Of a DNA stretch of 64,000 bases, positions 1-60,455 are shown piece by piece. The stretch is from Escherichia coli. GTDB lineage: Bacteria > Pseudomonadota > Gammaproteobacteria > Enterobacterales > Enterobacteriaceae. The stretch lies in the NCBI RefSeq assembly GCF_022846255.1, contig NZ_AP025682.1; one strand, given 5' to 3'. Numbering within the stretch: the first letter of the stretch is position 1; every line of letters begins with the position of its first letter. The notes under the pieces are model-generated. The model saw nothing but the letters and a program-made list of their open reading frames with translations, was not told the origin of the DNA and made no database searches. Both the position numbers and the translations under genes were made by a program.

Positions 1-1778
1 CCGTTCGGATCCGCCATCAGGTTATTAGTTTTGGTAAGCTGATACAGTGCGCCAGTCACCACAATTGGGCGATCTTCTGGCACATATTTCACGCCGACTT
101 CATACTGTTTGCCTTTCGAAGGTGCAAACAGATCACCGTTCGCATCAGTCTGTGAAGCGGGTTCAAATGATTCACTGTAGCTGAAGTAAGGCGTTACGCC
201 GTTGTCGAACAGGTAGTTTACACCACCACGCCAGGTGAACTCTTTGTCGTCACGTTCAGATTTATTACCGTAATCACGGTTGAAAGATGACTGATCGGCC
301 CAGTCATAGCGACCGCCAAGCGTAACCAGCACTTTATCCCACTGCGCCTGATCCTGAACATACAGGCCGGTTTGTTTCTGTTTCAGCAGAACGCGGTATG
401 GACCAGACGGATTCGGGTGAGCGCCAAAATCAAAGTCACTACGGTCTAAATTATAGATATCAGATGGTGCAACTGAACCGGCATATCCGAACCAGGAGTC
501 GATGTCATTACGCATACGCATAAAGTCAACGCCAGTCAGCAGAGTGTGATCCACAGAACCGGTTGCGAATTTGCTTTGCAACTGAGTATCAACAGAGAAG
601 TTTTCTAACTTCTCATTATCGATAACGTACTGACGAGTCAGTGTATGGCCCCATTGAGACTGCGGGATACTTAAACATGGACTCGCCTTGAGTGCCTCCT
701 GGTCTTTGGTATACAGCGGATCTGAACACATACCGTAGCCATATACGCTCTTTTGCGAAACTTTATTTTGCGCAAAGCGCAGGTTCTGACGCACAGTAAA
801 GGTGTCGTTAAATTCGTGGTCGAAGCTATAACCAATCATCTTCTCGTTACGAGAATAGGTGTTGTTCTTCGCCCCTTCGTTAAAGTCTGTCGGCAGACGC
901 TTACCGTTTGGCAGCGGCTCAACGGTCCCCTCTTTCGGCAGCCAGCCGTAATAACCAGTTTCCGGCTCGTTCTGGAAGTAAGAAAGGAAGGTGAAATTGG
1001 TTTTATCGTCCGGACGCCAGGTGAACGCCGGTGCAATAGCATAACGCTGCTCTTCTGACCCTTTCTGCTGGGCATTGGCAGAACGCGCAAGACCGGTCAG
1101 GCGATAAGAATAAACGCCGTCATCATCCAGTGCATCGCTGAAGTCAAAACCGGTCTGGAACAGGCTGTCAGTCCCGGCCTTAAACTGAACTTCTTTCAAC
1201 GGTTCAGTGGTCGGACGCTTGCTGACCATATTCAACAGACCGCCAGGACTGCTTTTACCGTAAAGCACGGAAACCGGGCCACGCATAATTTCAGCACGTT
1301 CCAGCATATACGGGTCGATGACCGCATCGTTATAGAAGTTGCCCTGCAACTTCAGGCCATTCAGATAGTTATTCTGGCTTTGGCCGTCTGCCGCAAATCC
1401 GCGGATGATCAGGTAATCATAAGTATTAGATGCGCCACGGGTTCCCACAGCAACGCCAGGGGTATAGCTAAGCGCTTCTTTCACCGACTTAGGCTGATGC
1501 AGCGCCATCTCTTCAGCGGTGACGACAGAAATAGATTGAGGTACTTTTTGAATCGGCGTATCGGTTTTAGTGCCGGTAGCTGACTGTCGCGCCGCAATAG
1601 TTGCAGCCGGCCCCCATGCGCTTTCTTGCGGCGCAGGTGCAGCGGTAACGGTGATAGTGTCTTCTTTCGGTTCAACCGCTGCCTGTGCATAAACAGACAT
1701 GCCGCTAACCGCTGTGGCTACTACAACTGCGATTTTACGCAGTGAGTGTTTTGGCTGAGCAGTTTTGGAAGGTGCCAT
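1..1778 (-). CDS. fhuA: Ferrichrome outer-membrane TonB-dependent transporter FhuA; N-terminal ~592 codons present, 3' end lies beyond the left window edge
   Basis: Minus-strand frame open from position 1 to ATG at 1776-1778; N-terminus MAPSKTAQPKHSLRKIAVVVATAVSG (signal peptide); window-edge peptide ...GALYQLTKTNNLMADPNG recognisable as FhuA; mrcB immediately upstream as in E. coli. Confidence 0.9.
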   Translation of the reverse strand, partial: MAPSKTAQPKHSLRKIAVVVATAVSGMSVYAQAAVEPKEDTITVTAAPAPQESAWGPAATIAARQSATGTKTDTPIQKVPQSISVVTAEEMALHQPKSVKEALSYTPGVAVGTRGASNTYDYLIIRGFAADGQSQNNYLNGLKLQGNFYNDAVIDPYMLERAEIMRGPVSVLYGKSSPGGLLNMVSKRPTTEPLKEVQFKAGTDSLFQTGFDFSDALDDDGVYSYRLTGLARSANAQQKGSEEQRYAIAPAFTWRPDDKTNFTFLSYFQNEPETGYYGWLPKEGTVEPLPNGKRLPTDFNEGAKNNTYSRNEKMIGYSFDHEFNDTFTVRQNLRFAQNKVSQKSVYGYGMCSDPLYTKDQEALKASPCLSIPQSQWGHTLTRQYVIDNEKLENFSVDTQLQSKFATGSVDHTLLTGVDFMRMRNDIDSWFGYAGSVAPSDIYNLDRSDFDFGAHPNPSGPYRVLLKQKQTGLYVQDQAQWDKVLVTLGGRYDWADQSSFNRDYGNKSERDDKEFTWRGGVNYLFDNGVTPYFSYSESFEPASQTDANGDLFAPSKGKQYEVGVKYVPEDRPIVVTGALYQLTKTNNLMADPN

Positions 1779-1800
1779 TGGTATTTCTCTAGTGTAAAGT

Positions 1801-1835
1801 GAATGATAACGTAAACGAGAATGATTATTATAAAG
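1801..1835 (-). promoter_or_regulatory. Fur-box-like iron-responsive operator in the fhuA promoter region
   Basis: Minus-strand sequence CTTTATAATAATCATTCTC (about 14/19 match to GATAATGATAATCATTATC) plus adjacent GATAAC-containing repeat, 25-55 bp upstream of fhuA ATG; fhuA is a known Fur target. Confidence 0.45.
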
Positions 1836-1997
1836 ATGAGATAATATTCGAAACGCTGGCGGGTTCGCAAGCGGTACGCAATCTGCGCATTCCTGAAGGG
1901 TCAATAAACAATCAGATGAAAAGAAAGGGTTAATACTTTGGAGGGGATGTTATTTTACCGGATGGCAGCTCGCCATCCGGTATATCACGCTTAGACG

Positions 1998-22485: not shown

Positions 22486-22866
22486 ATGATTCGCACGATG
22501 CTGCAGGGCAAACTCCACCGCGTGAAAGTGACTCATGCGGACCTGCACTATGAAGGTTCTTGCGCCATTGATCAGGATTTTCTTGACGCAGCCGGTATTC
22601 TCGAAAACGAAGCCATTGATATCTGGAATGTCACCAACGGCAAGCGTTTCTCCACCTATGCCATCGCGGCAGAACGCGGTTCGAGAATTATTTCTGTTAA
22701 CGGTGCGGCAGCCCACTGCGCCAGCGTCGGCGATATTGTCATCATCGCCAGCTTCGTTACCATGCCAGATGAAGAAGCTCGCACCTGGCGACCCAACGTC
22801 GCCTATTTTGAAGGCGACAACGAAATGAAACGTACCGCGAAAGCGATTCCGGTACAGGTTGCCTGA
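22486..22866 (+). CDS. panD: Aspartate 1-decarboxylase proenzyme
   Basis: ORF 22486..22866 (126 aa) [33 protein letters not shown]; self-cleavage site G-S present. Confidence 0.93.
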
Positions 22867-46808: not shown

Positions 46809-47300
46809 TCATGTCTGTGACGCTAAAGTAACAAAGTATTCACCTTATGTCCATACATGTTTTGATTGAAATCATGAAACTGTGCACATTTTAACAACTT
46901 GACATATATAACGTTTCAAAGTTGTAACTATGCACAAATGTAGACTTTACGTAGGAAAGGGATTTTTTAACGATTATTAAACTATAAAAATCCGAATTGA
47001 ACCGATTCACTTACCAATTTTGTGATTTTTAATTCAATTAAAACGAATTTAAATTCATTCTGCATATTGAGAGGGGTTGAGGCTGAGCTTTACAAACGGT
47101 TTCTTTTTAAGCAACTCATCTTCAACCATGCATAAAGCGGGTGCATTCGCTGTCGCATACCATTATTCTTGATCTGACGGAAGTCTTTTTGTAACAATTC
47201 AAACTTCTTTGATGTAAACAAATTAATACAACAAACGGAATTGCAAACTTACACACGCATCACTGCGTAGATCAAAAAAACAATCACCGCACGAGGTTTC

Positions 47301-57749: not shown

Positions 57750-60455
57750 TTATTGCAGGCGGCCATGGCACTGCTTGTATTTTTTACCAGAACCACACGG
57801 GCAAGGATCGTTACGTCCTACTTTGCGTTCACCGGTTTGCGCCGCCAGTGCAGCTGCGGCTGCAGAGTCGTCATCCTGATGGCTAAGCTGCTGCATTTGC
57901 GCTAAACGCTCGGCTTCCATACGACGCTGTTGTTCCAGCTCCTCAACCTCTTCAGGCATACGTACCTGAACTTTGCTCAGCGTGCTGATAACTTCATATT
58001 TTAACGACTCCAGCATCGCTGCAAACATGGAGAACGATTCACGTTTGTATTCCTGCTTCGGATCTTTCTGTGCATAGCCACGCAGGTGGATACCCTGACG
58101 CAGATAGTCCATCGCAGCCAGGTGCTCTTTCCACAGAGAGTCAAGCGTTTGCAGCATGACGCCTTTCTCGAAGTGACGCATCATCTCAGCACCAACCACT
58201 TCTTCTTTACGCTGATACACTTCGATGGACTGTGCCAGAATGCGCTCACGCAGCGTCTCTTCATGCAGTTCTGGTTCTTTATCCAGCCACTCGGCAATTG
58301 GCAAATCGAGGTCGAAATCGTTCTTCAGACGTTCCTGCAGCCCCGGAATATCCCACATTTCTTCCAGCGACTGTGGCGGAATGTAGGCATCAATGGTGGC
58401 TTTGAACACATCTTCACGAATGCTGTTGATGGTTTCGCTCACATCGCTGACATCCAGCAGTTCGTTACGCTGGGAGTAAATGGCGCGACGCTGATCGTTA
58501 GCCACGTCATCATATTCCAGCAGTTGCTTACGAATGTCGAAGTTACGGCTTTCAACTTTACGCTGGGCGTTGGCAATCGCTTTGGTCACCCACGGGTGCT
58601 CAATGGCTTCGCCTGGCTTCATACCCAGTTTACGCATCATGCCGGATACTCGGTCGGAAGCAAAAATACGCATCAGCGCATCTTCCATCGACAGGTAGAA
58701 ACGGGAAGAACCAGCATCCCCCTGACGACCAGAACGACCGCGCAGCTGGTTATCGATACGACGGGATTCGTGACGTTCAGTACCGATGATATGCAGGCCA
58801 CCTGCTGCCAGTACCGCATCGTGACGTACCTGCCAGTCGGCTTTAATTTTTTCAATTTGCTCTGCAGTCGGATTTTCCAGCGCGGCAACTTCTGCCTGCC
58901 AGCTACCACCGAGCACAATATCGGTACCACGACCCGCCATGTTGGTCGCGATAGTCACCGCAGCCGGGTAACCTGCCTGAGCAACAATCGCCGCTTCGTT
59001 GGCATGGAATTTGGCGTTCAGGACGTTGTGCTTAATACCGGCTTTGGTCAGTTCATTTGACACCAGCTCCGATTTTTCGATGGAGATTGTACCCACCAGC
59101 ACCGGCTGGCCTTTCGCAGTACGTTCTTTGATATCTTCAATGATCGCCTGAATTTTTTCCGCTTCAGTCATGTAGACCAGGTCCGGCAAATCTTTACGAA
59201 TCATTGGACGGTTGGTCGGAACAACGACAGTATCCAGCTTATAGATGGAGCTGAATTCGAAAGCTTCGGTATCAGCAGTACCAGTCATCCCCGCCAGTTT
59301 TTCATACAGACGGAAGTAGTTCTGGAAGGTGATCGAAGCCAGCGTTTGGTTTTCGTTCTGGATCTGCACACCTTCTTTCGCTTCCACAGCCTGGTGCAGA
59401 CCATCGGACCAGCGACGGCCCTGCATGGTACGACCGGTGTGTTCGTCAACGATGATAACTTCACCATCTTTAACGATGTAGTCGACGTCGCGGGTAAACA
59501 GCGCATGAGCGCGCAGCGCCGCCGTTACGTGGTGCATCAGCATGATGTTGGCCGGAGAGTACAGAGACTCACCTTCATCCATGATGCCTTCTTTAACCAG
59601 CAGTTCTTCAATCAGAACCAGACCACGTTCGGTCAGGTTCACCTGGCGAGATTTTTCATCCACCGAGAAGTGGCCTTCGCCCTGGAAGGTTTCGGAGTCT
59701 TCTTTTTCCTGACGGATCAGGTGCGGAATAATTTTATTCACGCGTTTATACATTTCCGAGCTGTCTTCTGCTGGGCCGGAAATGATCAGCGGTGTACGCG
59801 CTTCATCGATGAGGATGGAGTCCACTTCGTCCACCAGCGCATAGTGCAGTTTACGTTGTACACGTTCTTCAGGGCTGAATGCCATGTTGTCGCGCAGGTA
59901 GTCAAAGCCGTATTCGTTGTTCGTACCGTAAGTGATGTCAGCAGCGTAGGCTTCACGCTTTGCCGGTGCTGGCATGCCCGGTAGGTTGATACCGACAGTC
60001 AGGCCAAGGAATTCAAACAGCGGACGGTTGTTTTCGGCGTCACGTTGCGCCAGGTAGTCGTTGACGGTAACTACGTGTACGCCTTTACCGGTTAGTGCGT
60101 TCAGGTAAGCAGGCAGCGTTGCGGTCAGGGTTTTACCTTCACCGGTACGCATTTCGGCGATGCAGCGTTCGTTAAGAACCATACCGCCGAGTAACTGAAC
60201 GTCGAAGTGACGCATGCCAAAGACGCGCTTACTTGCCTCACGCACCACGGCGAAAGCTTCCGGGATCAGATTTTCCAGCACTTCGCCTTTTTCCAGACGC
60301 GCACGAAACTCTGCGGTTTTCCCTTTCAGTTCTTCGTCGGAGAGTTTTTCCATCTCCGGTTCCATGGCATTGATGATGTTGACCACTTTGCGCATCCGGC
60401 GCAGGGTGCGATCGTTACGACTACCGAAAACTTTAGTTAATAATTTGATTAGCAT
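57750..60455 (-). CDS. secA: Protein translocase ATPase SecA
   Basis: ORF 57750..60455 (901 aa) [25 protein letters not shown]; C-terminal zinc-binding [17 protein letters not shown]. Confidence 0.96.

Follow-up and report, generated by a model that had tools for sequence, protein, structure and literature searches.

The element at 1801-1835 of the window (the whole stretch of 64,000 nucleotides of Escherichia coli DNA that was analysed) is almost certainly the Fur operator of fhuACDB that has already been published. Repression of fhuA by Fur is textbook knowledge, and the product of this gene serves also as a receptor for phages, colicins and antibiotics. The site is therefore best regarded as a positive control: the window carries the usual mrcB-fhuA region of E. 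coli, its iron switch intact. What is left as mildly novel is a possible divergent Fur-controlled transcript and a composite Fur/HypT block, both of which have already been reported for Salmonella.

The fhuA coding sequence occupies 1..1778 on the minus strand, where the left end of the window cuts the gene after its first 592 codons, as judged from the translation, which begins MAPSKTAQPKHSLRKIAVVV. The ATG lies at 1778-1776 (A = 1778) and is preceded by a Shine-Dalgarno sequence AGAG at 1790-1787. mrcB ends at 1998, leaving an mrcB-fhuA spacer of 219 nt, and in matching E. coli genomes the gene is likewise annotated as fhuA, with mrcB as its neighbour. Nearly all complete E. coli genomes (5,421 of 5,426) have a match to the 361 nt around the operator, with the top identity (99.7%) in strains of B2 type, among them Nissle 1917 and ATCC 11775. 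Between -103 and -19 nt from the fhuA ATG the promoter differs from that of K-12 MG1655 at one base, without indels: position 1838 of the window, on the outer rim of a secondary Fur register, has C where K-12 has T (167424). Window positions p are converted to K-12 coordinates throughout as 167484 + (1778 - p).

Several features of the surroundings may be recorded here. The FhuA N-terminus reads MAPSK, with Pro at codon 3 (1771-1773) in the n-region of the signal peptide; this residue is Arg in K-12 and in 60 of 79 other species, and Pro is also found in Nissle 1917, so that we regard it as a lineage variant. Directly 3' of the mrcB stop codon, a perfect 9-bp inverted repeat, CCGGATGGC-AGCTC-GCCATCCGG, spans 1960-1982; it is without a U tract on both strands and belongs to the least conserved portion of the spacer; a role as terminator of mrcB or as a stabilising hairpin is conceivable. 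Compared to Nissle 1917, the window is without an island of about 4 kb with tssD (Hcp-toxin) and bacteriocin-immunity genes between aroP and pdhR (~46950-47212) and without the IS1397 copy beside mutT (~57240); apart from these two absences both sequences are collinear, at 98-99% identity.

On the minus strand CTTTATAATAATCATTCTC has a single exact match in the window, at 1835..1817, which is 39-57 nt ahead of the ATG of fhuA. This is the classical 19-bp Fur box register, which shares 14 of its 19 bases with the classical consensus GATAATGATAATCATTATC. Match counting of this kind was dropped as a criterion: nine positions of the window reach 14/19 where about one is expected, and most of these sit in a run of GAT codons in yacH (~38.8 kb). 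Because consensus counting does not discriminate, a weight matrix was used instead. It is palindromic, 19 bp long, and derives from 13 further Fur sites of K-12 that are supported by a footprint or a gel shift (gpmA, ryhB, sodA, fecI, entC, fhuF, cir, fepD-entS, exbB, fepA-fes, fecA, yoeA and nohA), fhuA itself being excluded. The centres given by Chen et al. 2007 (PMC2189734, Table 4) served to cut the training sequences out of the K-12 genome, after the coordinates had been moved to the current version of that genome and each checked against the published gene distance.

The matrix places the primary Fur dimer site at 1814-1832, read on the minus strand as the near-palindromic 9-1-9 sequence TATAATAATCATTCTCGTT. 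Its centre at 1823 lies 45 nt upstream of the ATG and its edges 36-54 nt upstream. With 20.4 bits it ranks first among the ~64,000 positions of the window, far above a runner-up of 12.5 bits, and it keeps this rank at pseudocounts of 1, 4 and 8. The exact probability of such a score is 7e-8 per position, which amounts to 0.0045 expected matches per 64 kb, and to 1e-5 to 8e-4 in the spacer, varying with the background composition; when the whole window was shuffled 200 times with its dinucleotides preserved, 20.4 bits were attained once. The score is comparable to those of sites validated by experiment, just under the 21.0-29.7 bits of the training sites, a range that is itself inflated by self-inclusion.

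The classical box is the same site as the primary one, read 3 bp further upstream. The earlier note had proposed a best window on the minus strand, and strand and site both hold; the best single-dimer register, however, lies 3 bp closer to fhuA, at 1814-1832. That note had named a non-significant score in a Fur matrix scan as what would refute its reading, and with the top score of the window this refutation clearly fails.

Four further matches in the window, at 38876, 41455, 55597 and 42933 (11.4-12.5 bits), fall within the range of the shuffles, whose mean maximum is 12.2 bits, and were rejected. The GAT/GATGAT-rich stretch of yacH at ~38828-38897 combines the highest classical-consensus counts of the window (up to 15/19) with 12.5 bits, and we read it as a repeat of Asp codons rather than an operator. 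As a cross-check of the matrix and of the coordinate conversion, two weaker matches elsewhere in the window could be placed on ChIP-exo peaks from the literature. The first (58027-58045, 9.4 bits, ATGGAGAACGATTCACGTT) lies at the 3' end of secA, upstream of mutT, and corresponds to K-12 110689-110707, where Fur ChIP-exo peaks were found in eight E. coli strains (PMC10164565). The second (22680-22698, 7.4 bits) lies inside panD, corresponds to K-12 146482-146500 and overlaps an intragenic panD Fur ChIP-exo peak of five strains (PMC10164565).

The primary site does not stand alone. Under the strict matrix just one register scores above zero, and with softer pseudocounts overlapping registers centred at 1829, 1826 and 1817 emerge, together with a faint one at 1811, so that a cluster of Fur sites with 3- and 6-bp steps extends over 1808..1838. 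Such a periodic 3- and 6-bp cluster is typical for Fur operators, and Chen et al. 2007 (PMC2189734) reported the K-12 fhuA cluster as three sites in 31 bp. Hexamers of the reverse type, including ATTCTC, GTTTAC, GTTATC and ATTCAC, run in phase from 1840 down to 1799. A Fur half-site GTTATCA within TTACGTTATCATTCA lies 12 bp from the main Fur centre, and more than one Fur dimer presumably binds across the cluster. Both of the adjacent GATAAT-type repeats proposed for this region are present, but the second one, at 1801-1809 (GAATGATAA; minus strand GTTATCATTC), scores as a half-site and forms no full box. Their placement at 25-55 bp upstream of the ATG was about right, the span 1801-1835 corresponding to 23-57 nt.

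That Fur acts at this sequence is well documented for K-12. The K-12 19-mer 167430-167448 is identical to 1832..1814 of the window, and in this strain the site is assigned as a Fur operator through this identity. Chen et al. 2007 (PMC2189734, Table 4) count fhuA among the strong Fur clusters and list its strongest site at 19.5 bits, with its centre at 167439, a distance of -45 and a positive gel shift, and Shultzaberger et al. 2007 (PMC1807945) found the two strongest fhuA sites (19.5 and 10.7 bits) to be gel-shift positive and the fhuA Fur sites to overlap a predicted promoter. Fur ChIP-exo peaks just upstream of fhuA were reported by Gao et al. 2023 (PMC10164565, supplement) in eight E. coli strains (MG1655, W3110, W, 042, BL21, ATCC 8739, Sakai and CFT073); the peak is present under iron-replete conditions in all eight, and under starvation too in W and CFT073. 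In MG1655 it lies at 167456-167466 (PMC10164565), which corresponds to 1806-1796 of the window, 8-18 bp downstream of the edge of the Fur site and off the site itself. For fhuA, the literature searched contained no Fur footprint by DNase I.

Expression data point in the same direction. Deletion of fur raises fhuA expression by a log2 fold change of 1.1 to 5.0 (PMC10164565), with a value of 3.9 in CFT073, a B2 strain like the present one (PMC10164565). Derepression of fhuA without fur was likewise seen with promoter-lacZ fusions (PMC4676285) and by RT-qPCR in a fur deletion (PMC7315122). The iron-dependent repression that had been suggested for this operator is thus borne out by published gel shifts, ChIP-exo and derepression in fur deletions for a K-12 site of identical sequence, and the three kinds of expression data agree.

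The operator is also strongly conserved. One genome per species was scanned with the first 281 residues of FhuA, which gave 80 loci from ~25 genera of Enterobacteriaceae as well as from Hafnia and Mixta. Of these, 79 had an assignable start codon; one locus (L068) without an in-frame ATG near the expected place was omitted. When the 300 nt upstream of fhuA are scored, the best matrix match is found at a distance of 43-52 nt from the ATG in all 79 and reaches at least 17 bits in 73, so that both the sequence and the position of the site are retained upstream of the orthologues. The commonest form across species is CATAATAATAATT(C/A)TCGTT. A block of 31 bp, 1831..1801, has 30 columns that are at least 90% conserved, with a mean entropy of 0.18 bits compared to 1.33 bits elsewhere in the spacer, and the 19-column windows of lowest entropy in the intergenic alignment fall in 1811-1831. 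Within the primary site 17 of the 19 columns (1814-1832) are at least 90% conserved among the 80 sequences, and columns 1801-1813 reach 93-100%; the invariance of the latter may be owed as much to HypT or to the -35 element of a divergent promoter as to Fur. Of 5,396 E. coli genomes, 5,363 carry the 40-nt operator with an identity of 99% or more, whereas the surrounding 361 nt reach this level in just 469 genomes and fall below 95% in 3,478.

The fhuA promoter of Hafnia alvei (locus L090, ~1125-1150) carries TCTTTATAATAATCATTCTCGTTT, which is the box of Escherichia, with a central C and TATAAT, and differs from the CATAATAATAATT form of most genera. Convergence or transfer could be the reason for its occurrence in this taxon.

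Three computational calls of the fhuA promoter, all on the minus strand, disagree with one another, and the literature searched yielded no experimentally mapped transcription start for this gene. The first has its -10 hexamer TATAAT at 1827..1832, inside the Fur site, and a start at ~1820, with footprint-derived coordinates; this start was adopted by Jo et al. 2019 (PMC6397515) from a computational study of Huerta and Collado-Vides (2003). In most other genera the hexamer reads CATAAT. The second, from our consensus scan (1841..1870), combines TTGCGA (1870-1865) and TATTAT (1846-1841) at a distance of 18 bp and predicts a start at ~1834, so that the Fur site would span roughly +2 to +21. Among the 80 species both of its hexamers form conserved islands with a variable spacer between them, TATTAT being replaced by TAAAAT in Cedecea and Hafnia, and this pattern lends mild support to a TTGCGA-18-TATTAT promoter in the family at large. 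The spacer of this candidate contains a further island, CGTTTCG on the minus strand at 1849-1855, which is 80-96% conserved per column. The third call is a predicted -10 hexamer TATCAT at 1803..1808, 29 nt upstream of the coding region (PMC1807945), which would shift the start further downstream; the sequence of this hexamer is conserved.

Depending on which of the three predicted promoters is taken, the Fur cluster covers the -10, the start region, or the -35 and spacer. The proposed overlap of operator and fhuA promoter therefore holds for each predicted candidate, although an overlap with the -10 itself is certain for one call only.

The action of the operator can be pictured as follows. 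When iron is sufficient, an Fe2+-Fur dimer would occupy the 9-1-9 site at 1814-1832, and Fur would probably also occupy the overlapping registers and the in-phase half-sites, from about 1838 to 1800. Because the operator DNA carries or abuts the -10 and the start of each candidate fhuA promoter, bound Fur would bar RNA polymerase, by blocking either its binding or the formation of the open complex, and fhuA would be repressed. As iron drops, Fur would leave the DNA, and the ferrichrome receptor and the ABC transporter would be expressed. Within this scheme we infer the steric occlusion, the number of dimers and the promoter that is used.

The repression of fhuA may not be the whole function of the block. 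On the plus strand our consensus scan detected a divergent promoter-like element, ATGATA-17-TATTAT, at 1803..1831, which is kept in 66 of 79 species. Its -10 hexamer TATTAT (1826-1831) lies inside the Fur site and shares bases with the minus-strand TATAAT (1832-1827), as is the case for the opposite-strand -10 hexamers of symmetric bidirectional promoters. In such promoters the -10 is shared, and 18 bp is the most frequent distance between the divergent starts (PMC12825309); here the -10 hexamers are offset by one base and the predicted starts lie at this commonest spacing. The operator might therefore sit on a symmetric bidirectional promoter and also repress a non-coding transcript of the plus strand with a start at ~1838, a counterpart of STnc3250, and the invariant stretch 1801-1831 would then be the span from -35 to -10. 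Such a transcript is complementary to the operation of the site as fhuA operator, and we regard it as a serious proposition, albeit one that is somewhat more likely to fail than to hold. In its favour, STnc3250 of Salmonella is repressed by Fur and transcribed divergently to fhuA, a Fur box covers its -10, and a gfp fusion of its promoter is iron-responsive (PMC5001712, PMC8432900).

Several observations speak against a divergent RNA at the E. coli locus. The literature searched contained no E. coli transcript data for it, and one paper called STnc3250 Salmonella-specific. A scan of 1650-2350 on both strands returned no Rfam family, and the putative plus-strand RNA (1838-2085) folds no better than its shuffles, its z of -1.6 not being distinctive. 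There is no clear terminator downstream, the would-be transcribed region at 1935-2000 is poorly conserved, and the hexamers of the plus-strand promoter are confounded with the Fur site. The most comprehensive version, in which the E. coli fhuA operator lies on a bidirectional core and co-represses a divergent RNA from ~1838, the 31-bp block serving Fur, HypT and RNA polymerase of either orientation as a composite element, is offered as a tentative and rather unlikely synthesis.

HypT, a HOCl-sensing repressor of the LysR type in Salmonella, leaves footprints on the fhuA promoter of that genus (PMC6397515). The sequence of the proximal DNase I footprint is matched exactly by the invariant TTACGTTATCATTCA at 1800..1814 on the minus strand, which encloses the second GATAAT-type repeat (1801-1809). 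The distal Salmonella footprint, AACCCTTCCTTTTCA, has a counterpart with one mismatch, AACCCTTTCTTTTCA, at 1917..1931 on the same strand. The proximal-distal spacing is identical to that in PMC6397515, so that, as far as the letters go, both footprinted motifs of a HypT operator of the fhu promoter are present at the reported spacing. One might accordingly suppose that the conserved block is chiefly a HypT operator, with the DNA looped between 1814-1800 and 1931-1917, and that Fur is secondary; the identity of the proximal motif, the single deviating base of the distal one and the position of the second repeat inside the proximal footprint would all agree with this. We consider it highly improbable, since the effect of HypT on fhuA is about twofold and confined to HOCl (PMC6397515), whereas deletion of fur has an effect of up to 32-fold (PMC10164565). 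Moreover, the HypT footprint shares just one base (1814) with the Fur site at 1814-1832, and the distal site is poorly to moderately conserved, with a mean majority frequency of 0.62. Control by HypT and control by Fur are compatible, and a HypT operator would thus be an addition to the Fur operator and no replacement of it.

Finally, the AT-rich block could be a core promoter alone, with an incidental likeness to Fur boxes and an indirect iron control of fhuA, as the -10 hexamers on either strand (TATAAT, TATTAT and TATCAT), all perfect or nearly so, and the poor discrimination of classical-consensus counts in the window might suggest, but this can be dismissed as exceedingly improbable given 20.4 bits from a matrix trained on other genes, the Fur-induced shifts of oligonucleotides carrying the fhuA site (PMC2189734, PMC1807945), the ChIP-exo peaks at fhuA in eight strains (PMC10164565) and 31 contiguous conserved bases, which far exceed the need of a -10 hexamer.

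The locus may be compared with the known systems that are closest to it. In the fhuA/STnc3250 region of Salmonella Typhimurium (Colgan et al. 2016, PMC5001712) the Fur box is the same, and the plus-strand -10 likewise overlaps the box. The pair of HypT operators in Salmonella (Jo et al. 2019, PMC6397515) has a proximal member of the same sequence and a distal member at identical spacing. Divergent transcription and HypT binding are known from Salmonella, whereas at the E. coli locus both are predicted from the DNA sequence. The footprinted operators of fepA-fes, fepD-entS, entC, cir, fecA, fecI, exbB and fhuF possess the same 9-1-9 architecture, AATGATAATnATTATCATT, and operators of siderophore genes share with fhuA the clusters of registers in 3- and 6-bp steps and the placement over the core promoter, which for fhuA is a predicted one. 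Compared to these siderophore-gene operators the left half of the fhuA site is weaker (TATAATAAT versus AATGATAAT). The closest counterpart is the fhuA Fur site of K-12, which differs in its surroundings by the base at 1838, by a few changes of the leader near the Shine-Dalgarno sequence and by residue 3 of FhuA, and which has the same 19 bp at the same distance of -45, in front of the same gene downstream of mrcB.
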